Below are positions 14,679 through 58,584 of a DNA stretch of 64,000 bases, piece by piece (the first letter of the stretch is position 1; the number at the start of each line of letters is the position of its first letter). Under the pieces are notes generated by a model. That model did not search any database, was not told the DNA's origin, and worked only from the letters and a program-made list of their open reading frames with translations. The DNA comes from Octopus sinensis. Taxonomy: Eukaryota. Location of the stretch: positions 1 through 64,000 of the forward strand of contig NW_021832612.1 in the NCBI RefSeq assembly GCF_006345805.1, given 5' to 3'. A program made the translations under genes and the position numbers.

Positions 14679-14875
14679 AAAAAGATATTAAGGATTTGAC
14701 AACTTATTCAACATTTTCCTTCAAACAAAATCCATATCACAACCTTATTACCAAGGCCCAAATGGATGCTCACTCGGTTCTGGATTGTTCACGTTTATGT
14801 ATGATATCTTCTACATGTACCGCCTTTTCATATACTGACACTAAGTGTTTACTAAAGAAACTTGTTGACCTTTAA
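14679..14875 (+). CDS. Terminal coding exon (phase 1), PAN/Apple-like domain, paralog 1
   Basis: Acceptor ttttttttctactgcag, phase-compatible with the donor at 3919. Translation EKDIKDLTTYSTFSFKQNPYHNLITKAQMDAHSVLDCSRLCMISSTCTAFSYTDTKCLLKKLVDL*. AATAAA follows at 14984. Confidence 0.8.
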
Positions 14876-14983
14876 TGGAATTCACCCCAAAATTATTTAC
14901 TTCTCAATGAAATGTGAGCAAGACTTCAACGGATCACGTTTGCTAATAATAATTATATAAGATAAAATGTGTATTTCTTCATA

Positions 14984-14989
14984 AATAAA
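14984..14989 (+). terminator. Candidate polyadenylation signal AATAAA of paralog 1
   Basis: About 110 nt after the stop codon and followed by T-rich sequence. Confidence 0.5.
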
Positions 14990-16139
14990 ATCAATTTAAT
15001 TCAGTTATTTCTTTTGTTAATTTATTTTTATTGCTAACGTTTTTCCTTTTTAGTCTTCTCTTAGAAATCCATTCACACTTTGGATGATTTATAAGATTAT
15101 TAAATTTACCCGAGTACCAATAGAACACTTGGGTATTATTTTATCAACCTTCAAAGAAAGAAACAAAAAATTAACAATAATAAGCAATAATAATCTCATG
15201 GCTTCTGATCGTAACTGACTGGAAGTGTCATCTTGTACATTGTTTTGTCCAGGTATAAAAAGATGGGCTACAGCAAATATTCTGCTCAATATCACAGATT
15301 TGCTTGTCGGTTGTTTGATCTTAAACAGTTGAGCATGTCATTTAATGGCTGACAATATGGGCACCTCTTGAAAGATGTGTGTTTTATTCATCATTCTTAA
15401 ACAAACCTTATTCAGGGACCTTTTATATCTGCTTCCGTTGTTTTGTTTTATTGATTATGCGGTAATCCACCCCCACCCCACTGGCCTTATCCTTGTCCTC
15501 ATCCCCATCATCATCACCATCATCATCACCACCACCACCATAATCACCATCATCATCTTCGTACCTGTGTGAATCACCATCGTCTTCATAGTAGTTAGGA
15601 TACTGCTGCAGCTGTTCCTACTACTATAACTACCACTACAACTAATGATGATGATGATGATGATGATGACGATGATGATGATGATGATGATGAGGCCCTC
15701 CTCCCCACCAATGACGCAATACAAATATCCTTCAGACCAATATAAAACAGACGGCGATGTCGAGAAAATATATTTTTACAATTTCCTCTCAGGCACTCGA
15801 CACTCAACGGTTCGCTCTGCAGTTTCAAGACTTTCAACGTTTCAAAATGCTCAAACTATTTCGCAGGTTGTCCACAATTTTTGGTAAGCTGAATATTCTT
15901 ACATTTCTCTCCACACATTTCCAGTTTTCTTTTAAAATCAAACTCAATGGCAGTTTTAATGTGTTCCATAATAATATTTAGTGATTGTGTATAAATACGA
16001 TGTTTTCTCTATAAAATGATTCTGTAGAAAACTAGCGCTACACGAAGAAATTTCACAATCATTTCCAAAATGATAAAATTGTTGGAATCCTGTAAGAAAA
16101 CCGCAAAAATAAGGAATTTCTTTGGAAATTATTTCTTCT

Positions 16140-16290
16140 TTTTATCATTTACTTGTTTCATTCATTAAAGTGTGGCCATGCTGGGGCACCACCTTAGAGA
16201 GCTTTAGTCGAATGAATCGGCCCCAGTTCTTATTGTTTTATAAGCCTGGTACTTATTGTATCGGTTCCTTACTGTCGGACTGCTATGTTA
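16140..16290 (-). mobile_element. SINE 3' fragment
   Basis: Reverse complement resembles the SINE tail at 18440-18545 (ccagcatggc...gaaacaagtaaa). Confidence 0.6.
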
Positions 16291-16356
16291 CAGGGATATA
16301 AATATGCCAATACTGCTTGTCACATAACGATGAGGGATAAACAGACACACGCACAC

Positions 16357-16357
<1 letters not shown>

Positions 16358-16431
<74 letters not shown>

Positions 16432-16485
16432 TGTGTGTGTGTGTGTGTGTATATATATGTGTGTGTGTGTGTGTGTGCATGTATG

Positions 16486-16515
<30 letters not shown>
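16358..16515. repeat. Compound (TA)n/(TG)n/(TATG)n microsatellite
   Basis: Directly visible. Confidence 0.95.
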
Positions 16516-16516
<1 letters not shown>

Positions 16517-17288
16517 TTGTTTTGCAAGGTTCTTGATGTGAATTCGTTTGTTGAAACAGATGTTGTATTTGGGGATGTCATATTGTCAGTTTAGCCAATG
16601 AAAATACGTGCACTATATATTTGGTGCTCGCTTACTTCAGCTTTATTTCATATTAATCGTATTTCGGCCAGAGTTCTTTCGTCACACTTCTGTCACCTCA
16701 TCAGTGATCCTTTGCTTTCTTCTTTTCTTTTTTGTGTCTCTCCTTCCTAACGATCTGCTATTTTGTATTCCTGTTGTATGTGTCTTTATTTGCGCATGTG
16801 TATATCCCTGTGTGTGTGTCTATGTTTTGTAAGTGTGTGTATGGTAACTGCATTATTCATTATCAGTATCCCCTGTTTATTCACGTTCGTTTAATTAAAT
16901 TTTATTTTACTTTATTCATTTGTTTTTATCAGTTCGAGGGATTTCATGAAATCGATTTTATGCATTGAAATTTCTTTTTTCTACAAAAAATGTTATGTAT
17001 GTTTGTTCCTTAAACTTGAGTGTGATAGTATAGATCTATACATTTTTATGAATATGGTTCTATAAGGAGACTTATGATATATGTTACCGGCGTCGCTGAG
17101 GTAAGGAAAAACATTATAAACGACACCACTAATTGACACGTTATTAATTAGCGTAATAGCAGCATAGCCTTCAAAAAACATGGATTACATGCAAAATATG
17201 TGAGCAAGAGAAATAATATTCTTAATTTAAATTCAAAATACATTGAAAGTCAACAATGTTTGGTTTAGAAGCGATGAGAGGAACTGAA

Positions 17289-17850
17289 AGATACGGAAAT
17301 AATTTTATTCTCAAACGCAGGTTAATGCTAATAACATAGCACGAATAGGATAAACTATCCATATTTCTTTAGAAAAATCTGTCGTTGGCCAGCCATGAGA
17401 CTCGAACTCACATCCCTGCGATTACCATTAAGTTAAACTGCCCAGCGACGAATTATTTTGCAATTTTAGGATGTATAAATCTAGCTTTAAAAGACGCTAT
17501 CGTACGTATTATACAAAATAAGTTGAAAGTCAAGAAACAGAATATGGCTAATTTCTCCAGTTCATGCTATATTATTAGCATCACCATGCGTTTGAGAATA
17601 AGATTATTTCTTCATCTGTATGATAGCGTCTTATAAAGCTAGAAGTAAATATCCGAAAATTGGAGAAGAACTTGTCGCTCGGCAGTTTAGCTTAATGGTA
17701 AAGCCCTTACCGCGTAGTCATAGGTATGTAAGTTCGAGTCTCATGGCTGGTCGCCAACAGATTTTTCTACAAAATATGGATAGTTTATCCTACTAATGCT
17801 ATGTTGTTAGCATTATCCTACGTTTGAGAATACAATTATTTCTTTATCTC
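17289..17850. repeat. Long imperfect inverted repeat (arms about 17289-17503 and 17621-17850) made of two opposed tRNA-like elements
   Basis: gaaataattttattctcaaacgcagg pairs with cctacgtttgagaatacaattatttc, and ataggataaactatccatatt with aatatggatagtttatcctac. The right arm has an A box TAGCTTAATGG and a B box GTTCGAGTC. Confidence 0.85.
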
Positions 17851-18087
17851 TATTTTTCAATATCCTTAAGATTATAAACTTGAAAAATTACAGGACAAGT
17901 TATTACACTTGGAAAAGTTCAAGACAACTTATTATATATGGTAAAATGCATAAAAAAATTACTTAAAATATTGCAGCTAAGGATAAAATGTGAATATTAA
18001 AATTTATTTGATTTTGATAAAAAAAAAGGTACTATCATTTTGTTAAAATATTGATACACATGAATACAGAGAAACAGAAGTCCCAAT

Positions 18088-18267
18088 AGGCGCAGGAGTG
18101 GCTGTGTGGTAAGTAGCTAGCTTACGAATCACATGGTTCCGGGTTCAGTCCCACTGCGTGGCATCTTGGGCAAGTGTCTTCTGCTATAGCCCCGGGCCGA
18201 CCAATGCCTTGTGAGTGGATTTGGTAGACGGAAACTGAAAGAAGCCTGTCGTATATATGTATATATA

Positions 18268-18313
<46 letters not shown>

Positions 18314-18550
18314 TATATATATATGTACGTGTGTGTGTGTTTTTGTGTCTGTGTTTGTCCTCCTAGCATTGCTTGACAACCGATGCTGGTGTGTTTACGT
18401 CCCCGTCACTTAGCGATTCGGCAAAATATACCGATAGAATAAGTACTGGGCTTACAAAGAATAAGTCCCGGGGTCGATTTGCTCGACTAAAGGCAGTGCT
18501 CCAGCATGGCTGCAGTCAAAATGACTGAAACAAGTAAAAGAGTAAAAGAG
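18088..18550 (+). mobile_element. tRNA-derived SINE with an internal (TA)n tract
   Basis: Head ggcgcaggagtggctgtgtggtaag...gggttcagtccc with A/B-box-like motifs, a cttgggcaagtg core, and a tail gaaacaagtaaaagagtaaaagag. Confidence 0.8.
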
Positions 18551-19039
18551 AGAGTATATAACTAAAGCTTTATACAAAATAAAATAGTATACATGGTAGG
18601 CAAATTCCTCATGTGAAAAATAGGCATCAAGACTAAAAATGGGAAGACTTGGCAATAACTCAGGCAATAACTCCAGCAAATTTTACTGTGGATTTGTAGT
18701 TATAGGTAGATTTTACAGCAATATATAACTAATTTTGTATTGTTCTATTTATTGTACTAATTATATTCTACTATTTTCAACATTCTAATTATTAATTAAT
18801 AATTTAAAAAATGAATATGTTTTAAAGTGCAAAAAATATTTTGAGTTATTTTTAATTTTTCATATAAGTAACACGCACACACAAATAGAAGTAATAACCT
18901 GTAATGAAATTTTTAGTTTTAATAAAAGCTAATATTTTCTAAATCCAAATATTTTCATGTCTAATAACTTTTCCTGTAATTTTCCAGGTTTATAATCTTA
19001 AGAATATTATTTCTCTTGCTCGCATTTTCAATATAAATA

Positions 19040-19063
19040 TGTATGCATTTATGTTTGTATGTG

Positions 19064-19112
<49 letters not shown>

Positions 19113-19455
19113 ATATGCGCATACATGTATTTAGGTATGTATGTGTATGTATGTCCGTCTGTATGTATGCATGCGAGTATATATGTATGTATTCGTATGT
19201 ATGTATGTTTGTATATGTTTGTGTATGTGTGTGCAGATTTGTATATTTTATGTATGTATTCTCATGCATATAGCTGCATATCTATACATGCTCATATATG
19301 TTTAAATGATAAATTTCTGGCCAGTTTTACAGATTTTTACAGTTCCAGTGATGAACTGGATCTGTTGTCTCTCCATTAGCTTTCTCCTTTCTGGTTTTGA
19401 GAAGCCTAATTTCTGCTAATTGCTATTTAGGCGGTGTGTTACATATCTTGCATAA

Positions 19456-19486
<31 letters not shown>

Positions 19487-19527
19487 TGTATGTATGTATG
19501 TATGTATGTATGTATGTATGTATGTAT
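19040..19527. repeat. (TA)n/(TATG)n microsatellite blocks
   Basis: Directly visible. Confidence 0.9.
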
Positions 19528-20439: not shown

Positions 20440-20840
20440 ATAAGGATGGTCTTTTGGAAATTTCAAAAAAGTCTACGGTATGGTTGTCGCAGTGTCTCGA
20501 AATAAAGCGAAGGAGAATGCAAGAAACCTGTGCAATGGCACTACCAGAAGAAACAGAGGCACGGAAAAATGTGTACCAATTGAGAACAAAGAAAAGCCGT
20601 GCAATGGAAACACCACAAGAAACAGAAACACGGACAAATACTGATCGGCTGAAGAAACAGGACTCCAGGGAAAACACGACGCTGCCACAAATTCAGCAGC
20701 GACAAGCAAACAAACAACTAGGTACGATAGCAATGGAGAGTTGGTCAGCAAAGAACTGGCAATGAGAGAATGGCTACGGAAGATGATGTGGCAGATTTTC
20801 ATGAGAAAGAACGAAACCCAAGCCTTATGTTGCACTATCC
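20440..20840 (+). mobile_element. Probable Helitron 5' coding fragment
   Basis: Charged repeats (LPEETEARK..., ETPQETETRTNTDRLK) followed by KNETQALCC, resembling the N-terminal repeats and CC motif of animal Helitron Rep. Confidence 0.45.
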
Positions 20841-20849
20841 ATCCCGATA

Positions 20850-23640
20850 TCATCACTTCAGCCTGCTCAATCTGATGGGTATCTAAGAGATCAGCAGTGA
20901 ATTTTTTGCTCTCTTTGAGAATAGAGTGATGTTTTTTTGGTCTTTCATGTTTTTTCAACAAGTTTTAGCATCCAATCGTTGGTTGCTTCGAGGTATTTGG
21001 CCAGTCCGATTGTGGTGGTTTTGTATGTAAGTTCAAGCTGGATCAAACCTCGACCTCCCTGAGCTCTGGGAAGGTAAAGGCGATCTTATTGGTGCATCTT
21101 ATTGCAAGTCAGTAGCTTGCAGATTTTTCTGTCAATTTTCATTATTTCACTGGTATTCCAGTTAAGCATATGGAAACTATAAAGAACAACTGGTACTGCT
21201 AAGGAATTTATGGCTAACACCTAATTATATGCATTCAGCTCAGACTTCAGGACTGCTCGAACTCTTCTATAACATACTTTCCTAACCTTCTCTTTCATGC
21301 TTGTATGCTGGATACTAGAGCCTTCATTTATTCCTAGGTATTTATAGATTTGTTCCTGCTCAAGTTCCTTTATTACTATTTCGACATCTAATTCAATTGA
21401 ACTAGACTTTACCAATTTCCCTTTCTTAAAACTGGCTTTGGCACACTTTTCAAGGCCGAACTCCATTCCGATATCATCACTGAATCCTTTCACAGTATTG
21501 TAATAATCCTTCAAGCTCTTCATCATCTTTGCCATATAGCTTTAAGTCATCCATATAAAATAGATGGCTTTTTTTCCTGTTGTCAATTTTGTAGCCATAT
21601 CCTGTTCTATTCAGTTCACTTGAGAGTGGTATTAGTGCTATGCAGAAAATTAGTGGTGAAAGTGAGTCACCTTGGAAAATTCCGCAGTTGATGCTAATGT
21701 TGTTTGAGTGCAATACTCCATTAGAATGATATAATTGGAGCTTCGTGTTCCATAGTGACATATTATACTTTAAAATATCTGAAATCACAGGAGAAATTTT
21801 GAAAATGTTCAGTGATTTCAGAATCCACGAATGTGGTATTGTCAAAGGCTTTTTTATAATCAATCCATGAAGAGCTGAGATTTCTGCGCTTGTTATGGCA
21901 GTTCTCAAGTATCATGCGATTAATTAGGAGCTGATCTTTGCATCCGTATGAGCCTCCTCGGCATCCTTTTTGTTCAGTGGGAAAGAGGTTATTCTCTACC
22001 ATAAACGTATATGTTTTCTCTACTAGAATAGATGTCAAAATCTTACAGGTAGTAGATAAACATGTTATAGGCCGGTGGTTTTTTGGGTCTTTCGTTTTGT
22101 TATTTTGGGGGAGGAGGTAAGTAATACCATTTACCATCCAATGTGGTGTTTTTTCCGGGTCTTTCATGATACTATTAAATAGTATTACTAACATTTTGTG
22201 TGCGGACGAGAGTGATGAGAGCCAGAAATTTGGTAGTCTATCAATACCAGGGGATTTCCACTTATGAGCCTTCGTTAGTGCCCTCCTTATGTCGGCGATT
22301 GAGATGTCTTCCCATACCTGTTCTTGTAGATTTTTTTAGGCATCTTGGGTGCGTTTGATCCACTCTGCATTTTCATTGTATGGTTTCTCATCACTCCAGA
22401 TCCCCTTCCAAAGGTTTTCAATTTCTTCCATTAGGGGTGAATTTTCAATGGTTACTTTTTCGTTCCTTATTTCCCTGTAAAATGATTTGGCATTGGATTT
22501 GAACATATTTTGTTTGTAGAATTTGATTCTTTTCTCAAATCTGCGTATTCTCTGAGCTTTTGCTTGAACTTTTTGTTTAAGTGTTTCTTTCGCTGACATT
22601 AGTTCTTCTCTTGTTGAGTGTCCATATTTTCTCACAATCTTCCTGCCTTTTCTTGATCTTACATCATTTACAGAGATTAGCTCAGTTAATATTGATATCT
22701 CCCTTCGCAATGATTCAATTTCAGTTTCAATTCTACTCCTCCAGTTTGATTTTCTTTTCGAATTTGGTATTATTGGCTTTTGGGGTATTAAACAACGTCT
22801 TTCGATTACCTTAGCGACAGAGTAAATAATTTCATTGAATTTATTAAGATCGGGTTTTAGTTGTTGTATGATTTCTTGTGTAACGCAGTTGCCAATTTTT
22901 ATTTGTGTTTTATGTTGGTGTGCATTTGAGAGTTTATGGAGTGGTTCCCTATCATTCATAGTTGCATGGCCTACAACTGCAAGCTCATTCAGAACTTCTT
23001 GCTTCATTTCAATGATAGATTTTCTGTGTTGTTCAACAAATATGTGGTCTTCAAATTCTGTTTCGACATCATTTTCCGGGCTGTTTTTCTAGGGTCATTA
23101 TATTTTCCTTCTTCTTCAGGATCTTGAGTCGTTTCGGCAGATGGTCGCCTTTCAGTCAATGCTTGTGGCCCAACATGCCTCTTCTCAGCTTCGTTATTTC
23201 TTTCCTGACTTACATTTAAGTCATTCTCTACCACGTTTTTAATAGAGGTTAATTCTGCATCTGTGAGTCTGGCATTTCTGAAGATATCTCTTCTAACATT
23301 TGCTAATCTGTTTTCATCCAGGTTTGGTCTGCTAGCTGGATTCCGGCTCTTCCAAATTCTGTAGGAGTTTGCGGTGTGTTTTTCTTCGGTTGGCCTGCTT
23401 AATGCAAAGTAATAAGCATATGTTACTTCTTTATATTCTTCCCGGTTCCATTTAGTTCTTTTACTTTTTTGATTTTCTGGTCGTTGTGGTGGTGAACTTT
23501 AGGGGCTTAATTTGGGACAAATCCCGTTTAAGTGACCTTCCAGGTTCAAATTCGGGGAAGATATTCTGCCATTTGAAATTTTTTTGCCATCAGGCTGGCA
23601 GCTTCCTTTATAACCATTGGACAAGCGATTCGGTGTACTG
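20850..23640 (-). mobile_element. Degenerate R4/Dong-type element (family 2), copy 2, with N-terminus and RT but no 3' end
   Basis: KWNREEYKEV...LANVRRDI at about 23290-23460; HRPITCL, EQKGC, WIDYKKAFD, QGDSLSP and YMDDLKLY in ORFs 21221-23007; frameshifted. Confidence 0.9.
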
Positions 23641-24059: not shown

Positions 24060-24225
24060 GAAGATGTCCTTTAGATTTTATTGACAAAGCTAGTATACCT
24101 TCGAGTACCTTTGATAGCTTGAGTTACTTTACTGACATCAGTTACACGAAATGTCTGCTTCGAAGATCATAGAACTGCTGAATTGCGTTTTTACAAGGAT
24201 TGGACTTACACCGAAATAAACAGAG
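24060..24225 (+). pseudogene. Orphan PAN exon (third paralog) with an internal deletion of about 71 nt, frameshift and premature stop
   Basis: Same acceptor and donor as 3689 and 52050. Reads RCPLDFIDKASIPSSTFDSLSYFTDISYTKCLL, then jumps out of frame to DHRTAELRFYKDWTYTEINR. Length 166 nt is not a multiple of 3. Confidence 0.85.
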
Positions 24226-24929: not shown

Positions 24930-25910
24930 ATATCAGTCCTAAGCAATGCTGATTTTTGTAGGTGTTCTATATTCACACTTGCAGCAGTCTTTTTCAGCCA
25001 TGTTGGCAGTTCAGTGTTGATATTTCCAAGTGCACCAATTATAATTGCTATCAATTCTCCTCTCTTCATTGGCCCCAACCTTCGTATTTCTCACTTCAAA
25101 TGGTCTTCACCTTGATCCTGTTGTCACCGGGCATGCTGTTCCCATTTTTATACATGTTCTTCCATATAAAAATTCACCATAACGATGTCTGGTTTCTGAT
25201 ATCTGGTCAGGTGATTTCCATGGATCATTGCATCTGACAGGATTTTGCAATTCTCATTTTCGATGACTCCTTCAGGCGTTTGCTCAACGTCTTTGCTCTT
25301 TGTAGGCCGTGATTTCCACAGAACTCCTAATGGGTTATTCGTGCCACATCGTCATGGCATCTTTTGTATAAGCGTTGTGTCAATTTTGGGCATATTAGTG
25401 CTTCTGTCTCTATCTTCAGGTCACTCCTCCTCATTCATAACCACCGGTCCTCTCTTATATGTCTTGGCGTTCACATCTCTTGCAAAATGACCGTACATTT
25501 TCTTTACCTTCGATGCTTTTTCTTTTTTCGTTCATTTTTTTGCTTTAAGTTCTCTTTAGTTACACAATTTTCAGTGTCGATGATGCCATCTTTCCTGTGT
25601 TTCAAGAATGGTTTCACAACATTTTGTATATTCCACCCTAGGCTGTTTTTTTTTTCTGCTTCGATACAGTCCTAGTACCTGATCAAGCCACTCCCACACT
25701 TTCTTCGGGACAAGTGTCACTTTTAGGGTGGAAAGCTCTGTGCGCTGTCAAAATGTTTCTGGTCTTGGTATTCTTCATTTCTCTCCTTTGCCATTTTATA
25801 ATTCCCACTCCATACCGAAGTGATGCTATCGCCCACGTATCGACTGCTTGGATTTTATTCTATCCAGTCAATTTTGAGCGCAACACCAACCTCAGTCGTC
25901 TGACATACTA
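24930..25910 (-). mobile_element. 3' fragment of another R4/Dong-type family
   Basis: IIIGALGNINTELPTWLKK...IEHLQKSALL at the C-terminus, RPDI upstream, and KTRNILT.HRAFHPKSD. Related pieces at 41990-42130 and 53830-54170. Confidence 0.7.
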
Positions 25911-28425
25911 GGGCCCCTAGTCTGTCTATGAAGATAGCTTCCTCATAGACAGACTAGGACCCCAAATTAACAACATGCTGGTTATTTTCAGCCAGTATAT
26001 TATTCAGCTACATCTGGGTGCGTGTATAGCGGTATGGCTACCAAGTTTCTCTTATGTTATATTTTATAGCATATATTTTCTAGTTAGTTTGTTTACAGTT
26101 AATGCAACGCTACTTATTATGTTTCCTATTTGGAAATAGATAAAATTATTTAGCTTTTAAAGTAGGGATATATAATGATAAGACCGTCACTTATAACTTA
26201 AGTGTTATCATTATACGCAGTCCTAACTACAGCTATATAAATGCCGTAGAGAAATATACTTTCTGGAACGCTAACGAACATTAGCGGGCATGTATATTAA
26301 ATATATTTTCGTGTTCTTTTGACTGCTATAAAAAGTACAGTTTAATAATTACAGAAATACATTTCATATATAGTTTAAGAACTTCCTGCATGGATGGTAG
26401 TCCAGGGATCATTCTCAAATTATCTTCAGTTCATTTTTTTATCGTCCCAAGTGCTTCTACAATCACTGGTATTGTAACCGTCTCGTGATGCCATCTTTGC
26501 TCCTACTACTGTGTGGAATTATTAAATATTGTTTAGTTTCGACTTTTGTCTTGTACTTGAGATTATCAAAAATATGTGAGGGCTGGAGGTGATTGTAGGA
26601 GAAAGAGGAGTAGCTTAGGGGTGGGGCGGATTTTTTTGAATTTTCCTTTCCTTTCTTTTAGGTTTCGCGAGTCGGACATCTTTACAGAAGTTTCCTCATT
26701 TAAACTTGCAGTTTTGATACAACCATTTGGTTTATTTTTGTCTTGTTTTTTCTTAATCTTAAATCTATTATTCAAGAAGGATATTGTCATTTTAAGAACA
26801 CAAGTGTTTGGAACTGAATTGGAACTGGTTATATGATAAAGAGCGTGGTTGGATAGCTTAGAAATTCCTCTCAAAATCGCGTGACCCTAAAACACAGTAT
26901 TTTCGGCTAGTACATTTTACCATCATCTCAAGTCGACCAAAGCTTTGTAAGTGAAATTACAGAGAAACTGTGTAGAATCCTGTCCAGTTGGTAACAGTTG
27001 TAATTTAAAGGTGAAACCGTGTCGCATTGTCTCAATCTGATTCTATCTGAGAATGTTCTGTGACTTGTACACTAATTCAATGAGTAAGTTGTCCTGAGGA
27101 TCGAATTCATCGTCGAAATCAACGGAGATCCACGTAATCATCATATCAAATGTATTTTCATAATTCTTCTCAAATTCTTATCGTCAGTTCTATGTTAGTA
27201 AGATTTCTACTTTGTAATTAACCTTGTTAATTTCTGAGAGTGTGCAAGAGATCGTGAAATTGTTTAAATTGCTGATATCATCATTTACCGTTGATTACCA
27301 ATATGTTAGAATGCTGAACATCCTTTGCTACACTGCTTATAGTGTCCCTTCGTTCGGATCTTCTATTGATTTCTGTATACGTTCTAAAATCTCGTCAGCT
27401 TAATAGGAATTTATCCGACTGATACAGCAACAGAAAAAAGAATAATATTCCTCACGGTCATTAGATGTGTGTGTGTGTGTGTGTGTGTGTCCACATCCAT
27501 TTTATTTAGAATTCTCTTTTGAATTTTGTTTGTTTGGAATTATATTTCTCCCAAATTTCGCGACAAAAGTTTGCAGTAATACTCATACCAAAGCACCTCA
27601 AATTCCAGCCCTTAAAAACCGTTCTCTGCCCCTCACTCTATTTTATATACTTCCCCTTTCGCTAATTGACCCCCACTTCATTTATCGTTACATACATACA
27701 CGTTGCACACATACACGCCACACACACACGCGCGCGCGCGCGCGACCGCACACAAATTCACACAGGCATACACGTGAATACGTGGACGATAATCTTCTCA
27801 ACAGAAGTGTTACAACCATTTCCGGTTGTTTATATGCGTCAACCCTGTGTATGTCTATTGCTGGTATATTATTGTCACGTAATACAGCCTGGAATGAAAT
27901 GGAGAATAGCGAGGAGACTCCGGAAAGGAGATACAGAAAAGGAGATTAAGGAGAGAAAGACAAAGAGAACAGAGATCAGATTTCGGTGAGGAACAACTGG
28001 AAGCTACACAGAAAGCAGATTGTGGCTATTGGTTAAACCGAAGAGGAAGAACATGCACGCTAAGAAGTAAGGCCTCTGACGATCGTAAATATTGCTTGTA
28101 ACAGAGATTGCAGTGCCGGCAGGAGAAGACATAGATTACCAGCTGTCAATGAAATTTCTATATTTTCGAGACATTCCCATGGACAGGCTCCATTCAATAA
28201 AGATTTTCGAGTTTATCCACAAAAATAATGATGTGTCACTGATTAATCTAAACGTTTTCAAGTCGAAATTGAGCCCGAAGACATACTTTGTTTTTCTCCT
28301 TTCCGTGAACCAGGATGGCAACAAAAAATGGTAGAACTATTCCATATTTTAGTGATGAGGAATTCTGTACATTGGTTATATTATTAGGAAGGATATGTGT
28401 CCTCGGGCATATATATATATATATA

Positions 28426-33969: not shown

Positions 33970-34000
33970 ATGTTGAGGAGGAATTATATTCGAATTATTT
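33970..34000 (+). CDS. Coding exon 1 of the complete PAN gene (start of signal peptide)
   Basis: aggATG context; MLRRNYIRII plus 1 nt, then donor gtaagt. Joins in phase to 37234 to give MLRRNYIRIIFLFYISLTFGNG. Confidence 0.7.
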
Positions 34001-37233: not shown

Positions 37234-37269
37234 TTCTCTTCTACATCTCACTGACATTTGGAAATGGAC
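37234..37269 (+). CDS. Coding exon 2 (36 nt, phase 1-1), hydrophobic second half of the signal peptide
   Basis: Acceptor ttttcattgcag and donor gtaagt; encodes (F)LFYISLTFGNG(L). Confidence 0.72.
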
Positions 37270-37827
37270 GTAAGTAAATTTATATCAATATATAGATATA
37301 TATCTATGAAAATTATGAAAATCACTACTGAAAACTTTAATTTATAAGTTCAGTGGAGGAAAATATTTTCCTTTTCTAAGTAAATTAGATGAAAAGAAAA
37401 CTCAAGATAAATCTCGTATTATGACGAATTCAATTCTTAACATAATTTCCATTGGTGATAATTCAGTTTTCCGTCAGTTTGTAAGCATTTTGTTAAATAA
37501 AACAAAGGGCTGGTATTAGGGGACATTCTTTACAACCGACAACCGTTAAACATTATAGTATATAACTTGTGAATCATTTAAATAATAGAATTAATTAAAC
37601 AGCATTTAAAACTCATTCGCAGTCATTTTCATTAAACAGATTATATATCCCAAGATGCTTTGTACCTTACAATATGGTAGTAACAACTCTATCACTTATT
37701 CCTGGTAAAAATATCAATGCTGATCCTCAAACATTTAATATTCTCTATCTTTATTATTATCTATTTTCACAATGTTTTATTTTCGTCTTCGTATTTTGGT
37801 TGTTAAATTTGCCTGGCTTTGTTACAG

Positions 37828-38085
37828 TTGAATATCTGAAGTATTTTATGAAAGTACCAAACTGTGCTCTGAAAGACGGTAAAACATTGATGACACTTGA
37901 CCTGGACGCCTTCAACTGTTCGAAGAGTTGTTTTGAAACTTCTGCATGTAAATCCTTCGTGAGCAGAACGATAAGTCCAAGCTGTATTTTATACGAAGAA
38001 GACTCAACAGAGAGGATGCTAATAAGTGAATATAATACCCATTTTTATCAGTTGAGAAGATCTGTGCCGACCAAGTATAGAGACG
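37828..38085 (+). CDS. Coding exon 3 (258 nt, phase 1-1), first PAN/Apple-like domain
   Basis: Acceptor ctttgttacag and donor G|gtaaac. Translation EYLKYFMKVPNCALKDGKTLMTLDLDAFNCSKSCFETSACKSFVSRTISPSCILYEEDSTERMLISEYNTHFYQLRRSVPTKYRD shows the C-x3-C-x5-C-x-SF...C-x-LY pattern. Confidence 0.82.
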
Positions 38086-42171: not shown

Positions 42172-45100
42172 CAGTAGTTTTATTTTTATAGCGTGCTTTC
42201 ACTTCACTACCGAGCGCAGCACTGTATGCCCTGGGTATGTGCTATGATTTGTTGTGATGCTCTGATGGTTATTGTATGGAAAGTGTTCTGCGTAGGATGT
42301 GTGCAGTGCCTAGTAGTGCAATTTTCTGTATGTTATATGTGTTTGTAAGTCCTGGTGTTTTTGTTATGTATTTGTCTGAATATTTTTTTATCATGCCTAA
42401 TGCACCTACTATGATAGGAATTGTTTCCGTTTTCAGATTCCACATTCTAGTTACCTCTATTTCCAGGTCTTTGTATTTTGAGAGTTTCTCCATTTCTTTT
42501 AGAGACACGTTGTCATCTGCCGGTATTGATACATCAATTAGAAAGCATTTTTTTTTCTTCATGATCTCTGACAACTATATCTGGTCTGTTGGCCTTAATT
42601 ATTCTATCTGTGTGTATCGGCATATCCCAGAGTATGGTTGCTTTCTCGTTTTCTGTGACCTTTTCTGGTGTGTGCCTATACCATCTTTTTACTGTTGTTA
42701 TTCTATAATGTTGGCATAGCTTCCAGTGTATGTAGGTTCCAACTCTGTCATGTCTGTGAATATATTCCTTCTTAGCCAGGACTGGGCAGCTAGAGATAAT
42801 ATGATTTATTGTTTCTTGTCCATCTCCACATATTCTGCAGTTACTTGTAATATTTCTTTTCATTACTTGTTTTTGGTAATTTCTGGTGGGGAGGCTTTGG
42901 TCTTGTTTCTGCTTTGAGTCCTGAGCTTCTCAACCATTGCTGGGATTTTTCTTTGTCTATTTCTTTTGCGTTTAGTTTAGTGCAGTATTTACCATGAAGG
43001 GGCTATTCTTGCCATCGTTTTATCATGGTTCGTTGCTGTTCTATTTTTAGTTTGGATTTCATTTGTTTTATAGCTTTTGTTGTTTCTTCATCATCTCCTT
43101 CTTCTTCTTCGTGTTTATTAGGTGGTATGATTTCTTGTTTGTATTTGTCAGCTTCCTTAAATACTGAGAACAGTTTTTTGTTTTGCTCGTGTTTTGCTGC
43201 TATCTGGATCAGTTTTCCTTCCTTCTGAAGTAGGTATTTTTGCAGTCCTATGGTGGTTATTTTATAGTAGTTCTCCAGTTGTATAAGGCCTCTACCACCT
43301 TCTATACGTTGTATATATAGTCTTTCTATGTCAGATTTTGGGTGATGCATCCTAGATCCTGTCAGTATTTTTCTTGTTTTCCTATCTATTTTGGACAGTT
43401 CATTTCGTGTCCAGTTAAGGATATTGTAGCTGTAACTTATAACTGGGACAGCTAAAGTGTTGATACCTATTATCTTGTTTTTAGCATTGAGCTCTGTTTT
43501 TAGTATTGATCTAACTCGCCTATAATATTCTTTTTTTTATTTTCTCTTTCATTTTTGTGTGTTGTGTCTTATCTAGTTCATGGATTCCTAAGTATTTGTA
43601 AGTTTGGCTTTGGTCTAATTCTTTTATTTCATCGGTTTTATCTAGTGTGATGTTGTTACTCTTAACTAGTTTTCCTCTTTTCATGGTTACTTTGGCGCAT
43701 TTTTCTAATCCAAATTTCATATCTATTTCTTTGGTAAATCCATGAACTGTCTTTAATAGTGTTTCCAGCTGTTTGTCATTTGCAGCGTATAGTTTTAGGT
43801 CATCCATATATAAAAGGTGGCTGATCGTTTTGCCGTAACATTTATATCCGCATCCAGTTCTATTTAGCATATCAGATAGAGGTGACAGTGCCAAGCAGAA
43901 AAGGAGTGGAGAGAGTGTGTCTCCTTGGAATATTCCTCTTCTGATGGGGATGTCTTTGGTTTTCATGAGTCCCTCTTTTGTTTGGAGGTGTAGGACTGTT
44001 TGCCATTTATTCATAGAGTGCTCTATGAATTTTATGATTGTTGGTGCTACTTTGTTAATGGCTAGTGTTTCAAGGATCCACGTGTGGAGGATGCTATCAA
44101 ACGCCTTTTTGTAGTCAATCCAGGCCATACTGAGGCCTTTCTTCTTTCTGTGGCTGTCTTCAGTTACGGCTTTATTAATCATTAGTTGATCTTTACAGCC
44201 ATATGAGCCTTTGCGGCATCCTTTCTGCTCTTCTGGGAACAGTTTGCTTTCGTCCAGGTGCTTGTTCAGCCTTTGCGATATCACTGCAGTAAATACCTTG
44301 AACATAGTAGGGAGGCAGGTTATTGGTCTGTAGTTTTCTGGTTTTGCTGTTTCATTTGATTTGGGAATTAAGATGGTTTTCCCCTTCGTGAGCCATTCAG
44401 GCATTGTCTCTGGCTCTGCTAGTATGCTGTTAAAGTTTTCAGCCAGCTTTTTGTGCATTCCTGTTAGATATTTCAACCAGAAGTTGGGGATCTTGTCATG
44501 CCCAGGTGCCTTCCAGTTGCTTAGTCTTTGCAGTGCCTGGGTGACCTCTTCAGTTGTTATGGGGGTCCAAAGTTGTTCACATGCCGAGTTTGTTATTTTG
44601 ATACTCCTTTTTTTGGCCGTTCGTTCGCCGACCATATTTCTCTCCAGAATTCTTCCAATTCTTCTGCCGTTGGTGCTGTAGTGACTTCTATTTTATTTTT
44701 TCCAGATCTTGGTAGAACTTTTTGGGGTTGGTGTTGAACTTTTTGTTCTGTTCAAAGAAGCGTTGGCGTTTCTCGTACCGGCGGATCCTTTGAGCTTTGG
44801 CAAGGATATCTTGCTTCAGCTTTTCTTTTATCTCCGGCAAATCATTTTCTGTGATGTTATATTTGCGGAGCATTTTTGTTCTCTTTTGTTGCTCAGTAGC
44901 GTTGATTGTTTGCTGATTTCGTTAAGAATAGACAGGTCTTTTCTAATTTTTTTTATTTTGTTTGGATGTTATTTATCCACAGGGTTTGTTTGGGTGGTGG
45001 TACTCCTGTTTGGGCGGGTTTGGGTGAGTATTCAGCTTCTTTTGTGGCTGCAGTGGCTGCTGCGTATATCAAGTCATTCAGTTCAGTGATATCACTTTTT

Positions 45101-45219: not shown

Positions 45220-45278
<59 letters not shown>

Positions 45279-45281
<3 letters not shown>

Positions 45282-46064
45282 TAGTTTTATTTTTATAGCG
45301 TGCTTTCACTTCACTACCGAGCGCAGCTCTGTGTGCCTTGGGTATGTGCTGTGATTTGTTGTGATGCTCTGATGGTTATTGTATGGAAAGTGTTCTGCGT
45401 AGGATGTGTGCAGTGCCTAGTAGTGCAATTTTCTGTATGTTATATGTGTTTGTAAGTCCTGGTGTTTTTGTTATGTATTTGTCTGAATATTTTTTTATCA
45501 TGCCTAATGCACCTACTATGATAGGAATTGTTTCCGTTTTCAGATTCCACATTCTAGTTACCTCTATTTCCAGGTCTTTGTATTTTGAGAGTTTCTCCAT
45601 TTCTTTTAGAGACACGTTGTCATCTGCCGGTATTGATACATCAATTAGAAAGCATTTTTTTTTCTTCATGATCTCTGACAACTATATCTGGTCTGTTGGC
45701 TTTAATTTCTCTATCTCTGTGTATCGGCATATCCCAGAGTATGGTTGCTTTCTCGTTTTCTGTGACCTTTTCTGGTGTGTGCCTATACCATCTTTTTTCT
45801 GTTGTTATTCCATAATGTTGGCATAGCTTCCAGTGTATGTAGGTTCCAACTCTGTCATGTCTGTGAATATATTCCTTCTTAGCCAGGACTGGGCAGCTAG
45901 AGATAATATGATTTATTGTTTCTTGTCCATCTCCACATATTCTGCAGTTACTTGTAATATTTCTTTTCATTACATGTTTTTGGTAATTTCTGGTGGGGAG
46001 GCTTTGGTCTTGTGCTGCAATTAAGAATCCCTCTGTTTCTGCTTTGAGTCCTGAGCTTCTCAGC

Positions 46065-46066
<2 letters not shown>
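45279..46066 (-). mobile_element. R4/Dong-type element family 3, copy b (about 0.8 kb, 5'-truncated) in (TAA)n
   Basis: Near-identical to the 3' end of copy a, with the same terminus cagtagttttatttttatagcg; TTA repeats on both sides. Confidence 0.93.
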
Positions 46067-46119
<53 letters not shown>

Positions 46120-46311
46120 GTCGTTGTTGTTGTTGTTGTTCTTCTTCTTGTCGTCGTCGTCGAGGTAAAACGTGTTTTGAACGCTCAGTATGTTTGAATT
46201 GTTTTCTTGTGTATTTTTGAAGGTTGTTGGCTGTTATGTAAGTGTTTTCGTTTTCTAAACCCCTATTGGTGTACAGAAGGGATTCTTTTCCGTTAAGAGT
46301 TCTGTCGGTCA

Positions 46312-47170
46312 GTACCTATTTCTTTAATACCCACAAGCGGCTAAACACAGAGAGGACATACAAACGGATTAAGTCGATTATATCGACCCCAGTGCGTAAC
46401 TGGTATTTAATTTATCTACTCCGAAAGGATGAAAGGCAAAGCCGACCTCGGCGGAATTTGAACTCAGAACGTAACGTTAGACAAAATACCTATTTCTTCA
46501 CTACCCACAAGGGGCTAAACATAGAGGGGACAAACAAGGTCAGACCTATGTATTAAGTCAATTACGTCGACCTCAGTGCGTAACTGGTACTTATTTAATT
46601 GACCCCGAAAGGATGAAAGGCAAAGTCGACCACGGCAGAATTCGAACTCAGAACGTAACCGCAGCCGAAATACCTATTTCTTTACTACCACAAGGGGCTA
46701 AACATAGAGGGACAAAGAAGGACAGACAAACGGATTAAGTCGATTACATCGACCTCAGTGCGTAACTGCTACTTATTTAATTGACTCCGAAAGGATGAAA
46801 GGCAAAGTCGACCACGGCGCAATTTGAACTCAGAACGTAGTGGCAGACGAAATACCGCAAAGCATTTCGCCCGGCGTGCTAACGTTTCTGCCAACTCCCA
46901 GCTTTTCTGACGGTTAGTACCTATTTCTTTATTACCCACAAGGGGCTGAACATAGAGGGGACAAACATGGACAGACATAGGTATTAAGTCGATTATATCG
47001 ACCCCAGTGCTTAACTGGTACTTAATTTATCGACCCCGAAAGGATGAAAGGCAAAGTCGACCTCGGCGGAATTTGAACTCACAACGTAACGGCAGACGAA
47101 ATACCGCGAAGCATTTCGCCCGACGTGCTAGCGTTTCTGCCAACTCCCAGCTTTTCTGACGGTTAGTACC
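46312..47170 (-). repeat. Tandem array of four SINE-derived units (about 175-250 bp)
   Basis: Units start tacctatttc...acaaggggctaaac at about 46313, 46487, 46671 and 46918; each has ggatgaaaggcaaagtcgacc..ggcggaatttgaactc. Confidence 0.85.
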
Positions 47171-47209
47171 TCGACGATTTATCCTCTGAACAGCACAAAG
47201 AACAGTACC

Positions 47210-50132: not shown

Positions 50133-50166
50133 ATTTATTACTATTATTATTATCATTATTATTATT

Positions 50167-51795
50167 CAGTAGTTTTATTTTTATAGCGTGCTTTCACTTC
50201 ACTACCGAGCGCAGCTCTGTATGCCTTGGGTATGTGCTGTGATTTGTTGTGATGCTCTGATGGTTATTGTATGGAAAGTGTTCTGCGTAGGATGTGTGCA
50301 GTGCCTAGTAGTGCAATTTTCTGTATGTTATATGTGTTTGTAAGTCCTGGGTTTTTGTTATGTATTTGTCTGAATATTTTTTTATCATGCCTAATGCACC
50401 TACTATGATAGGAATTGTTTCCGTTTTCAGATTCCACATTCTAGTTACCTCTATTTCCAGGTCTTTGTATTTTGAGAGTTTCTCCATTTCTTTTAGAGAC
50501 ACGTTGTCATCTGCCGGTATTGATACATCAATTAGAAAGCATTTTTTTTTTCTTCATGATCTCTGACAACTATATCTGGTCTGTTGGCTTTAATTTCTCT
50601 ATCTGTGTGTATCGGCATATCCCAGAGTATGGTTGCTTTCTCGTTTTCTGTGACCTTTTCTGGTGTGTGCCTATACCATCTTTTTTACTGTTGTTATTCC
50701 ATAATGTTGGCATAGCTTCCAGTGTATGTAGGTTCCAACTCTGTCATGTCTGTGAATATATTCCTTCTTAGCCAGGACTGGGCAGCTAGAGATAATATGA
50801 TTTATTGTTTCTTGTCCATCTCCACATATTCTGCAGTTACTTGTAATATTTCTTTTCATTACATGTTTTGGTAATTTCTGGTGGGGAGGCTTTGGTCTTG
50901 TGCTGCAATTAAAAATCCCTCTGTTTCTGCTTTGAGTCCTGAGCTTCTCAACCATTGTTGGGATTTTTCTTTGTCTATTTCTTTTGCGTTTAGTTTAGTG
51001 CAGTATTTACCATGAAGGGGCTTTTCTTGCCATCGTTTTATCATGGTCCGTTGCTGTTCTATTTTTAGTTTGGATTTCATTTGTTTTATAGCTTTTGTTG
51101 TTTCTTCATCATCTCCTTCTTCTTCTTCGTGTTTATTAGGTGGTATGATTTCTTGTTTGTATTTGTCAGCTTCCTTAAATACTGAGAACAGTTTTTGTTT
51201 TGCTCGTGTTTTGCTGCTATCTGGATCAGTTTTCCTTCCTTCTGAAGTAGGTATTTTTGCAGTCCTATGGTGGTTATTTTATAGTAGTTTTCCAGCTGTA
51301 TAAGGCCTCTACCACCTTCTATACGTTGTATATATAGTCTTTCTATGTCAGATTTTGGGTGATGCATCCTAGATCCTGTCAGTATTTTTCTTGTTTTCCT
51401 ATCTATTTTGGACAGTTCATTTCGTGTCCAGTTAAGGATATTGTAGCTGTAACTTATAACTGGGACAGCTAAAGTGTTGATACCTATTATCTTGTTTTTA
51501 GCATTGAGCTCTGTTTTTAGTATTGATCTAACTCGTCTATAATATTCTTTTTTTATTTTCTCTTTCATTTGTGTGTGTTGTGTCTTATCTAGTTCATGGA
51601 TTCCTAAGTATTTGTAAGTTTGGCTTTGGTCTAATTCTTTTATTTCATTGGTTTTATCTAGTGTGATGTTGTTACTCTTAACTAGTTTTCCTCTTTTCAT
51701 GCTTACTTTGGCGCATTTTTCTAATCCAAATTTCATATCTATTTCTTTGGTAAATCCATGAACTGTCTTTAATAGTGTTTCCAGCTGTTTGTCAT
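50167..51795 (-). mobile_element. R4/Dong-type element family 3, copy c (about 1.6 kb, 5'-truncated) in (TAA)n
   Basis: Near-identical to 42172-43780, with the same 3' terminus. Truncated just after the YMDD region and abutting (TTA)n 51795-51872. Confidence 0.93.
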
Positions 51796-52049: not shown

Positions 52050-52280
52050 GAAGATGTCCTTTTGATTTTATTGACCTTGCTGGTATACCTTCAGAGAATG
52101 ATTTGGGTAGATTTAATGACTACAGTTACACGCAATGTCTGCTTCATTGCGAAGCAATGCCAAATTGCCAATCGTTTGACTATAGCTATAATTACAAAAG
52201 ATGCTACTTGTCAACTATAGGTCATAGAACTGCTGAATTGTATTTTTACAAAAATTACATTTACACCGAAATAAACAGAG
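52050..52280 (+). CDS. Coding exon 4 (231 nt, phase 1-1), second and hypervariable PAN/Apple-like domain
   Basis: Acceptor ttttcttcttcttacag and donor AG|gtaagg. Translation RCPFDFIDLAGIPSENDLGRFNDYSYTQCLLHCEAMPNCQSFDYSYNYKRCYLSTIGHRTAELYFYKNYIYTEINR. Confidence 0.87.
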
Positions 52281-52468: not shown

Positions 52469-52506
<38 letters not shown>

Positions 52507-52629
52507 CATACATACATACATACATACATACATACATACAACATACATACATACATACATACATAAATGCATACATACTCGCATACATATATAGATGCAC
52601 GCATACATGCATACATACATGCACGCACA

Positions 52630-53800
52630 CACTCATACGTACAGATAACTACTAAATAATCGATGAATAAAAGGGACAAAGATAGCACCAAACCTCCGTG
52701 CTGCGATGGAAAATGTTGGCTCTGCTATACCAGTGTGGAAGATGTCACCCACATCATCAGTAGTTGCGACAAAATGCCTACGAGATTCTACCTGCCCCTG
52801 AGGCATGATATAGTTGCAAAGACTATTTACGATGCTACCCATAGGAAGGACTGCTCGGACGTATACATCGAAGCCATGTTAGAACCAGCAAGTAATCAGA
52901 CCTTTTGAAAGCAAGGAATACTGGTGGAACTCCCCGCAAAAACAAACATCAATTCGGTACAAATATAGCAGACCTGATATTGTTCTGTGGTACAGGGGAA
53001 AAATTCATGCATTGTTGTAAGGGTCAGCTGCCCAGAGGATGTGAATGTGCAATCAAAAGTCTTAGGAAAATAGAACATTTATGGCAAACTTACAGTTCTT
53101 GTACCCTGACCATAAAGTCTCGTTTGCACCTTTCATCAGAAGTGCATTAGATTATGTACCAACAATTTTGCACATTTGCAGAAAAACCTATAAATACTCG
53201 GTTTCACAGAGAAAGAGCTAAAGAAAAACTGACGCGGATTGTCAAATTCCAATGTTTTAGTGGCACAGTGAAGATGTGTAAAACATTCCCAAACTATTCC
53301 ATCTGTGATTCTTAGGTGAATAGATGCACACGATTGAGTGTATGCATCGACAGTCCCACGAACTCAACCACACATTTGCAATCACCGGGAACTCACTCAT
53401 CTCAAAAACTCTTGTCGCTTTCTTACCGACTGTATGTTTATTGCATTCAGATGGCAGGAATTTTCTCCATTCGCTTCTTGCGTTGAAAGACAATTTGAAA
53501 CAGCGAAGTGTGTACAGACACAAAAGTATGCTTCAAACTGCGGACAGGCCAATTCTTTTAATAGAACCTGTCTTGAAGTCCAAGAACCAAGTCAGATTAT
53601 ATGCCTGGGGAGACGCTATTACCTTTACGACCCTGTCTCTTTAAATTATCATCAAAACCCAGCAGCAACCGGGATTCTTTATTGAGGAGTTGTGGAGTGA
53701 AACGATTTGGTACCAGACTTTCCTAGAGAAAGGGAATTCATCACCTTTAAGGGACTGCCTCAATCCCTCAACAGTGATGATGTTGACTGCAAAGGAAGTC
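52630..53800 (+). repeat. Segmental duplicate of 4390-5550 (REL fragment plus Helitron remnant in the intron after the PAN exon)
   Basis: Collinear, high-identity match visible throughout. Confidence 0.92.
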
Positions 53801-56800: not shown

Positions 56801-57633
56801 AGACCATCAGAAGAATAAGAAACAATTTTTATTCCATTTCAGAACTTTGGAACGATTTCAAACAGTCAAATACACTGGACAAGATTAACTCTGTGGGATG
56901 TGGTATAATATTTTTCGACTCTTATTATTTCCTTGACAGTAAGACCCTCTTTTTGTTCATTTTTTTGTGTTTTTCGTTTCTGTTTCTGATTTCTAATCTT
57001 TATTAACTTGATCTCTAGTTCTTGCCACATTCATTGATCTCTAGTTCTTGCCACAAAAATTAAAAAAATAAATAAATATCGCATTCTCCTACATCAAATG
57101 AGTATTTCTACTTAGAAACTTAATTCTTAATTAAATATATTAACAGTAAATTAATGATTAATATTCATTCAAAAGGATGTTGTAAAACAACCAACAAATA
57201 CATTTAAAATCTGGCAGATGGATTAATATTAATCTCCGTTGTCATTAAAATTCTCAACACGCTTCCTTACTAATCTGCAAAGAAATACCTCAATACATCT
57301 CGCCGGTAATACGAGAACCATTCTCCCTCCGAGATACCCATCAACATACCCCTTCTCATTCTCCCGTCATACATGCTATTACAGCAACCAGATCACATCC
57401 CGCATCAATTATTAATCCCAGTCCTTCCTTTCTAGATTATACAACATTCAGGTACTCACTCCCTACTCACACTAACCTAAAGATGTCTAAACGGAACATG
57501 AATACAATCGATCTATCGAATCAATAGGCCCTATCTATTCGTTTCCTTTGTACTTTGTCAGATTAGAGCAATAATTTAATTTATGCTCTTATATTTATTG
57601 TGTTTCCTCTTTCCATTTTTTTTTCTATTGCAG

Positions 57634-57824
57634 AAAAAGAAACTAATGATTTGACAGCTTATTCAACATTTTCCTTCAAACAAAATCCAAATCTCTACCT
57701 TATAACAGAGGCCCAAATGGATGCTCACTCGGTTCTGGATTGTTCCCGTTTATGTATGATATCTTCTACATGTACTGCCTTTTCATATACTAACACTAAG
57801 TGCCTACTAAAGAAACTGAGCTGA
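57634..57824 (+). CDS. Terminal coding exon, first duplicate (PAN/Apple-like domain 3)
   Basis: Acceptor ttttttttctattgcag, phase 1. Translation EKETNDLTAYSTFSFKQNPNLYLITEAQMDAHSVLDCSRLCMISSTCTAFSYTNTKCLLKKLS*. Confidence 0.78.
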
Positions 57825-58393
57825 ACTTTAATTGAATTCACCCCAAAATTACTTACTTGTCCATGAATTGTGAGCAAGACTTCAACGGATCACGTTTGCT
57901 AACCTATTTTGCTTATTTTTTTGTGTCCTTTTTCCTTTTTCTTGTTTCTCATTTTTAATTCATTGATCTTCTGTCTCCATTTCTTGTCGAAAAAATAAGA
58001 GAAATTAATGTCGCTCTCTTCTTCATCGCATTATTTCTTCTACTTAGAGTCCTAATTCTTAGTTAAATATATTTACAGTAAATTTATAATTCCTCTCCCC
58101 GAGATACTCAGCCACATGCCCCTTCTCCCGTCATACATGCTATTACACCAATCTGATCACATCCCGCATCAATTATTATCCCCAATCCTTCCTTTCTAGA
58201 TTTTACAACACTCAGGATCTAACTCCATACTCGCACTACTCTAAAGATGTCCAAACGGAACATTAATAAAATCGATCTATCGAATCAATAGTCCATATCC
58301 ATTCGTTTCCCTTGTACCTTTCAATGAAGAGCAATAATTTCATTTATGTTGTTATATTTCTTGTGCTTTCTCTTGCTTTTTTTTCTATTGCAG

Positions 58394-58584
58394 AAAAAGT
58401 AATTAATGATTTGACAGCTTATTCAAATTATTCCTTCAAACAAAATCCATATCACAATCTTATTACCAAGGCCCAAATGTATGCTCACTCGGTTCTGGAT
58501 TGTTCCCGTTTATGTTTGATATCTTCTACATGTACCGCCTTTTCATATACTAACACTAAGTGCCTACTAAAGAAACTGATCTGA
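58394..58584 (+). CDS. Terminal coding exon, second duplicate (possible alternative last exon)
   Basis: Acceptor tttttttttctattgcag, phase 1. Translation EKVINDLTAYSNYSFKQNPYHNLITKAQMYAHSVLDCSRLCLISSTCTAFSYTNTKCLLKKLI*. Confidence 0.75.

Follow-up and report, generated by a model that had tools for sequence, protein, structure and literature searches.

Described systems and the octopus PAN family

Gastropod FREPs undergo somatic diversification. They are grouped with CREPs and GREPs as VIgLs, which passages of PMC10875847 describe as secreted, multi-copy proteins whose diversity arises from gene duplication and conversion as well as exon shuffling, and define by a signal peptide together with IgSF and a fibrinogen, C-lectin or galectin domain. 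Here we analyze a 64,000-nt stretch of Octopus sinensis DNA (contig NW_021832612.1, positions 1 to 64,000 of the forward strand; hereafter the window), which holds two genes of a tandem family with the protein layout signal peptide-PAN1-PAN2-link-partial PAN3 (∼280 aa). Like the VIgLs, the octopus family is multi-copy, likely secreted and reshuffled among its copies, but it carries PAN modules only. A Pfam scan of seven full-length relatives returned only PAN families, together with two sub-threshold Ig_TMEM131L_5 matches (E about 0.04) that fall on PAN segments; the terminal exon matches PAN families and no VIgL-defining domain, and no Ig fold is seen in an AlphaFold model or in its fold matches. 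Having no IgSF or fibrinogen domain, the family is therefore not FREP. On balance we favor the view that the family encodes PAN/apple proteins of three modules, likely secreted, with a PAN2 that is positively selected and has many old variants while the other exons are reshuffled, and that they likely form a recognition repertoire whose ligand-contact surface is predicted to be PAN2.

This mode of evolution is shared with the CEACAM and major histocompatibility complex (MHC) class II families, which differ in being membrane-bound and in having unrelated Ig and MHC folds. According to PMC7042247, the introns and remaining exons of CEACAM32 undergo conversion, whereas the ligand-contact exons stay out of concerted evolution. 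Avian MHC II is likewise cited for contact-exon escape, yet passages of PMC10641522 report that its hypervariable exon is itself largely homogenized between paralogs.

The closest solved sequences to PAN2 are the apicomplexan apple lectins TgMIC4 and SML-2 (E = 2.3e-7 and 5e-6), which also have tandem apple domains and are secreted; they differ in their low identity (about 13-19%) and in a Lys position of SML-2 at which PAN2 has Ser. We take this position to be the equivalent of K469 in MIC4, and we know of no evidence that either lectin forms a hypervariable tandem family. K469 is required for sugar binding, according to PMC6608980. The N domain of HGF/plasminogen, the apple domain of factor XI/prekallikrein and the leech proteins LAPP and saratin have the same fold (Z 6-12 per domain), but the octopus family lacks kringle and protease domains. 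Whole-protein TM-scores are only about 0.25, so no solved structure matches the arrangement of three modules. Older octopod three-PAN proteins (e.g., LOC106868215, LOC106868212, and Argonauta GAB1605676.1, all uncharacterized) share the PAN-PAN-link-PAN layout and the conserved CP and GC motifs, and differ in showing 15-47% identity by module.

Family size and sampling

The genome contains 54 PAN3, 54 PAN2 and 46 PAN1 matches, clustered on C17 and C29 as well as on unplaced contigs. Part of the unplaced-contig matches were fetched; 29 rows were tabulated and 20 intact genes analyzed, leaving out a02p (stop), a12 (frameshift), b18, b19, and c22 (incomplete as fetched), u24b and u26 (near duplicates), and two distal terminal exons, although some of these copies were still used in the close-pair test described below. 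Mean amino-acid identity over the 20 genes is 76% in PAN1, 48% in PAN2, 78% in the link, and 81% in PAN3, and at a threshold of 80% identity they fall into 16 PAN2 types and two PAN3 types. Five Cys and an intact frame persist in 24 out of 25 extracted PAN2 exons plus the broken relic in the window, and all 25 are open.

The named relatives are uncharacterized Octopus proteins, and full-length distant relatives come from Argonauta and Octopus (best 150 of 221 profile matches). A search for short relatives with the PAN2 profile returned one protein, and the ESM Atlas generic PAN clusters only. Among the copies of the 13-gene cluster, an annotated protein was returned for a13 only; since most of these copies thus lack one, expression studies may have missed them. 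No paper on this octopus family was found in literature searches, with most subscription journals outside their scope. Word searches of the main texts of PMC7656900, PMC12607849, PMC9795677, and PMC10138644 gave nothing relevant to the family, and gene identifiers and peptide motifs had no match in the supplements of PMC10138644, PMC9699675, and PMC9712504 (each searched in part), PMC7693380, and PMC13230822, a result with no bearing on tissue.

Positive selection among the modules

The hypervariability of PAN2, noted in a first-pass annotation of the window, extends to the whole family and is accompanied by positive selection. Site models were fitted with GY94 code written for this analysis (M0 branch proportions fixed, naive empirical Bayes, no cross-check in PAML). 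Comparison of M2a with M1a gives a likelihood-ratio test (LRT) statistic, 2dL, of 96.4 for PAN2, 59.4 for PAN1, 5.1 for PAN3, and 0 for the link. In PAN2, 23% of sites have omega 3.8, with 12 sites above 0.95, and M8 against M8a yields 2dL = 88; PAN1 has eight selected sites, and PAN3 three (M8 vs. M8a, 5.4). Positive selection is therefore strongest in PAN2 and present in PAN1 as well. In 26 null simulations with strong recombination (three trees per exon), the highest LRT for PAN2 was 15.1.

The mean rates separate the modules less sharply. Under M0, omega over the 20 genes (confidence interval, CI, in parentheses) is 1.47 (1.04-2.11) for PAN1, 1.18 (0.94-1.51) for PAN2, 0.51 (0.30-0.88) for the link, and 0.76 (0.53-1.11) for PAN3. 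The partitioned dN/dS comparison proposed in the annotation thus places PAN2 above PAN3 family-wide, but only at P = 0.05 and with PAN1 as high as PAN2; the rates of the two exons, whose similarity across the family had been named as counterevidence, are partly similar.

Close pairs, picked by hand for each exon (ten for PAN2, ten for PAN3), allow comparison of the proportions of nonsynonymous (pN) and synonymous (pS) differences with the flanking sequence. For PAN2, pN is 0.083 against a pS of 0.049 (P = 0.007) and flanks of 0.036 (P = 6e-11). The corresponding values are 0.047, 0.058, and 0.065 in PAN3 and 0.040, 0.023, and 0.065 in PAN1.

The gene pair in the window

The two PAN2 exons of the window (3689-3919 and 52050-52280) differ by 34 replacement codons and one synonymous codon among 77, exactly as first counted. 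For the terminal exons at 14679 and 58394 the earlier figure of five synonymous changes also stands, but there are nine replacements and 53/62 identical residues, rather than eight and 54/62; the latter values are reproduced when the split first codon is counted and the last one dropped. Fisher's test on codon classes, which had been suggested as a check, supports the contrast between the exons (P = 0.005; P = 0.0009 using the exon at 57634). PAN2 had been described as the exon directly before the terminal one, but a 96-nt link exon lies in between.

Plain synonymous-codon counts conceal multi-hit codons. By pairwise maximum likelihood, the PAN2 pair has dN 0.36, dS 0.22, and omega 1.6 (LRT 1.0; not significantly above 1), and the terminal pair dN 0.06, dS 0.15, and omega 0.41 (LRT 1.8; not significantly different from 1). 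Base differences amount to 24% in PAN2, 8% in the terminal exon, and 5-6% in nearby introns. Since the terminal exon differs no less than the introns near it, a fast PAN2, not a frozen PAN3, is the main source of the contrast. Synonymous change at residue-identical codons is found at 1/42 in PAN2 versus 6/51 in the terminal exon, and this low PAN2 value bears out, for the window pair, the statement that time alone does not explain the contrast.

Recombination and the age of PAN2

Exchange of sequence among paralogs is evident from exon trees, the pairwise homoplasy index (PHI), cross-species PAN2 relationships, and a block in gene 2. In approximately unbiased (AU) tests, every exon rejects the trees of the other exons (6/6 comparisons). 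By the PHI test, recombination within the exon is detected for PAN1 (P = 0.001) and the link (P = 0.04) and is not found for PAN2 (P = 0.70) or PAN3 (P = 0.53). The block, which starts near 57902, is 95% identical to paralogs a07/a12 and 91% to gene 1, so that the terminal exon at 58394 within it came from another copy. The supposition that PAN2 and terminal exons were duplicated together must therefore be abandoned: The AU tests reject a shared tree, the 58394 exon is part of the a07/a12-like block, and another terminal exon of gene 2, at 57634, lies nearer. Recent homogenization of terminal exons by conversion, raised earlier as an objection, is partly borne out. We reject recent conversion specifically between the two terminal exons, as these differ more than their introns.

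The mosaics are clearest where PAN2 departs from its surroundings. In a10 and a13, PAN2 is 41% different from the neighbors, and the surrounding PAN1 and PAN3 are only 3-13% different. Two O. bimaculoides proteins have PAN1 modules that are 88% identical (bootstrap 75) and share four residues absent in all 20 PAN1s analyzed here. Their PAN2 modules are 43% identical to each other, each being 76% identical to a different O. sinensis paralog (bootstrap support of 99 and 34 for the two pairings). PAN2s of O. vulgaris are identical (76/76) or 99% identical to the O. sinensis paralogs b20 and b15, respectively. As far as these sequences go, PAN1 is homogenized within species yet carries selected sites.

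Tree dS is 3.0 for PAN2, 1.1 for PAN3, and 0.8 for PAN1, and divergence at fourfold sites is 0.28, 0.15, and 0.05, respectively. The flanks have diverged by 0.19/0.20 (PAN2), 0.12/0.11 (PAN3), and 0.09/0.12 (PAN1), and the upstream flank of PAN2 is more diverged than that of PAN3 in 158 out of 184 pairs. With about twice the fourfold-site divergence and a more diverged upstream intron, PAN2 is partly older. We ascribe the threefold contrast in part to this greater age and in part to selection.

Constraint on PAN3

The first-pass annotation had proposed that specificity lies in PAN2, with PAN3 serving as a scaffold or effector module that is constant and under functional constraint, a proposal that we consider doubtful. 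What stands of it is the low nonsynonymous difference of close PAN3 pairs relative to their flanks (ratio 0.71, P = 0.017); about 41% of PAN3 sites at omega near 0.1, invariance of 22 out of 60 columns, and an SML-2-like Lys in every copy also fit such a module, as does the low omega of the link, the best-conserved part in comparison with Argonauta. However, the interval for PAN3 omega includes 1, and over all pairs the divergence of the exon (0.106) equals that of its flanks. Terminal exons have also been duplicated and swapped among genes, and PAN3 matches just part of the PAN_1 profile and has weak fold matches. Identity to Argonauta is 39% for PAN1, 34% for PAN2, 47% for the link, and 28% for PAN3; PAN3, with the lowest value, is thus not the part conserved over long times. 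In its sequence evolution PAN3 is near-neutral.

Domain structure

Terminal and PAN2 exons score above the Pfam cut-off for PAN_1. PAN1 and PAN2 are ordinary PAN/apple folds (PF00024), above the cut-off and with a helix, a five-stranded sheet, and the core Cys. In the AlphaFold model of relative P0009 (46 aligned sequences; pLDDT 87.7, pTM 0.76), PAN1 matches the HGF N domain (Z 12.2, root-mean-square deviation 2.1, 81 aligned), and PAN2 matches the kallikrein apple (Z 8.7) and MIC4-A5 (Z 8.3). The model places the third module in a link-exon strand plus the terminal exon, without the usual last PAN strand. Its terminal part spans only profile positions about 15-53 of 76, even though it passes the PAN_1 cut-off; residues 211-280 have weak non-PAN fold matches only, and a PDB sequence search with PAN3 gave no match. 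In the model, the N-terminal helix at 3-18 is hydrophobic, and no further hydrophobic helix is present.

The selected PAN2 sites, at 20/22, 48/50/52, and 62/64/66, lie on or beside predicted strands and alternate with conserved positions, a pattern that suggests they likely form one exposed face of the sheet. From what is known of apple domains, the likely partner of the invariant N-terminal Cys in PAN2 is the link Cys, which is invariant too. Three residues after the last core Cys, at the Lys position of SML-2, all 20 copies have Ser in PAN2, Tyr in PAN1, and Lys in PAN3. Terminal exons (e.g., window 14847-14861) end in an invariant Cys-x-x-Lys-Lys in 20/20 copies, resembling the SML-2 arrangement.

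Possible mechanism and function

The mosaics suggest that tandem copies exchange DNA through unequal crossing-over and gene conversion. Such exchange would homogenize PAN1, link, and PAN3 and generate duplicates and relics such as the distal terminal exon of gene 2 and the orphan PAN2 exon of the window, while selection would favor new PAN2 surfaces and protect distinct old PAN2 types from being overwritten. The outcome would be a set of likely secreted proteins with differing binding faces. Several PAN2 types co-occur in single public runs (assembled contigs whose RNA nature is presumed, and which come without tissue or expression level): X3, X6, and X8 each contain two distinct PAN2 starts behind PAN1.

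Several observations weigh against a recognition repertoire centered on PAN2. Its mean omega has an interval that spans 1 and is no different from that of PAN1 (P = 0.32), so PAN2 is not the sole selected module; the PAN1 signal in turn overlaps recombination within the exon, and one in six null runs reached an LRT of 17.8. The set of 20 genes may include alleles or duplicates created by assembly. The selected sites were placed from predicted strands, not from model coordinates, and the Ser found throughout PAN2 argues against a sugar site of the MIC4/SML-2 type there. As for age, only the upstream PAN2 flank is clearly raised in the 10-gene cluster, the downstream one being like other flanks, and the window pair has just the single synonymous change among residue-identical PAN2 codons noted above; the older-cassette part of the account is thus uneven.

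As for what such proteins would bind, variable foreign surfaces (microbes or parasites) appear the most likely option, with a chance approaching even; a prey-directed salivary target and a reproductive one would both be improbable, and to the same degree, and any other target slightly more so. We put forward only tentatively the more specific idea of a germline repertoire of PAN-fold immune-type recognition proteins in octopus, with at least 16 PAN2 cassettes, some predating the divergence of Octopus species, that unequal crossing-over exchanges among common PAN1/PAN3 frames: a cephalopod counterpart of FREPs without shared domains. That the proteins are salivary or prey-directed and diversify like venom components, the active exon outrunning its introns, seems unlikely to us; PAN2 does evolve faster than the flanking introns, and PAN1 has fold matches to two leech salivary PAN-fold proteins, LAPP (Z 8.0) and saratin (Z 6.1), but a common fold does not show function. 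We regard as a little less probable still a role in reproductive recognition or in the egg coat under sexual selection. Patterns of this kind are common among gamete proteins, and the family is of secreted type, positively selected, and of an adhesion-type fold; against this, the near-identity of O. vulgaris PAN2s to b20 and b15 places the diversity among paralogs and not between these sister species.

The family might also reflect no adaptive diversification at all, with older ancestry or relaxed constraint of PAN2 combined with conversion of the other exons, or with chimeras of assembly. The higher tree dS of PAN2 relative to PAN3 and an 18.9-kb repeat at 99.8% further along the window contig would suit this explanation. 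The site tests largely refute it, however, and PAN2 pN in close pairs exceeds both pS and flanks, while Cys and frame are retained; also opposed to it are the match between the window and C17, which extends over 67.8 kb at 99% or more, and the existence of cross-species PAN2 types. We therefore consider it very improbable.

Recognition of diverse microbes and parasites by cephalopods is poorly known, and the PAN family is a concrete candidate. It is also tractable: The proteins are small and confidently modeled, their frames are near-identical and carry at least 16 naturally occurring forms of PAN2, and 12 selected sites can be named. Independently of tissue, the family clearly exemplifies a PAN/apple domain as hypervariable module, with one exon escaping concerted evolution.

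Gene anatomy and surrounding sequence

Exons and related features of the two genes are listed in Table 1. The coding sequence of gene 2 is divided among six exons (33970, 37234, PAN1 37828, PAN2 52050, link 56843, and one terminal exon), and the pair of terminal exons of this gene, T1 and T2, recurs in paralog a11. The PAN1-PAN2 junction is among the loose ends in public runs; in run X1, the first 30 nt of gene 1 PAN2 apparently follow a PAN1 exon through splicing. At 99% identity, the window duplicates G000:C17 21.745-21.813 Mb, and the PAN1 of gene 1, expected further to the left, was recovered at that C17 locus, with 81/85 residues identical to PAN1 of gene 2. No PAN1, link, or PAN3 exon was found beside the orphan PAN2 exon.

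Table 1. Family exons and associated features in the window
Feature	Position	Strand	Remarks
Gene 1 PAN2 exon	3689..3919	+	Hypervariable; net charge +9; AG/GT ends; Pfam PAN_1 E 1.5e-10
Gene 1 link exon	14078..14173	+	96 nt; invariant Cys; predicted to form two short helices and one strand; in annotated relatives too
Gene 1 terminal exon (partial PAN3) with stop	14679..14875	+	AG acceptor; PAN_1 match; AATAAA at 14984
Orphan broken PAN2 exon	24060..24225	+	166 nt; internal deletion and frameshift
Gene 2 exon 1	33970..34000	+	ATG; first part of likely signal peptide; junction with exon 2 seen as loose ends in runs X1, X3, X6
Gene 2 exon 2	37234..37269	+	Hydrophobic; remainder of likely signal peptide; GT..AG joint 37269 to 37828 in 4/4 public runs
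Gene 2 PAN1 exon	37828..38085	+	Homogenized among paralogs; some positively selected sites
Gene 2 PAN2 exon	52050..52280	+	Hypervariable; net charge -2
Gene 2 link exon	56843..56938	+	Link-to-terminal splice in run X6
Gene 2 proximal terminal exon T1	57634..57824	+	Absent from first-pass annotation
Block: intron, distal terminal exon, 3' flank	57902..59000	+	Closest to paralogs a07/a12 (95%); junction near 57902
Gene 2 distal terminal exon T2	58394..58584	+	AG acceptor; PAN_1 match; exon compared in first-pass annotation

Window positions 1-18939, the region of gene 1, are repeated further along the same contig at G000:C9083:84880-103786 (L083-L084) with 99.8% identity, behind a frameshifted PAN1 at 74792, and the order on C9732 is similar; the repeat is either a copy-number variant or an assembly artefact. 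Elsewhere, G000:C17:39155000-39488000 holds an older cluster of divergent PAN-PAN-link-PAN genes (23/26 matches), and weaker PAN clusters occur on C3, C9, and C13.

Behind the orphan PAN2 exon, intron fragments at 25564-26665 match intron 4 of gene 2 (84-88%), with a weak exon-1-like match at 26418. A short open frame at 60686-60877 is similar to the unusual tail at the C terminus of gene model P0166; it may be a repeat that serves as an alternative last exon or is mistaken for one. Retrotransposon-like remnants, presumably of the long interspersed nuclear element (LINE) type, lie on the minus strand at 6211-7068, 10423-11139, 21766-22335, 43523-44692, 45247-46068, and 50135-51795, several of them within introns of family genes, and include a 390-aa frame with a YMDD-type motif. 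A tandem repeat at 46300-47171, with units of roughly 185-250 bp, also matches 12966-13112.

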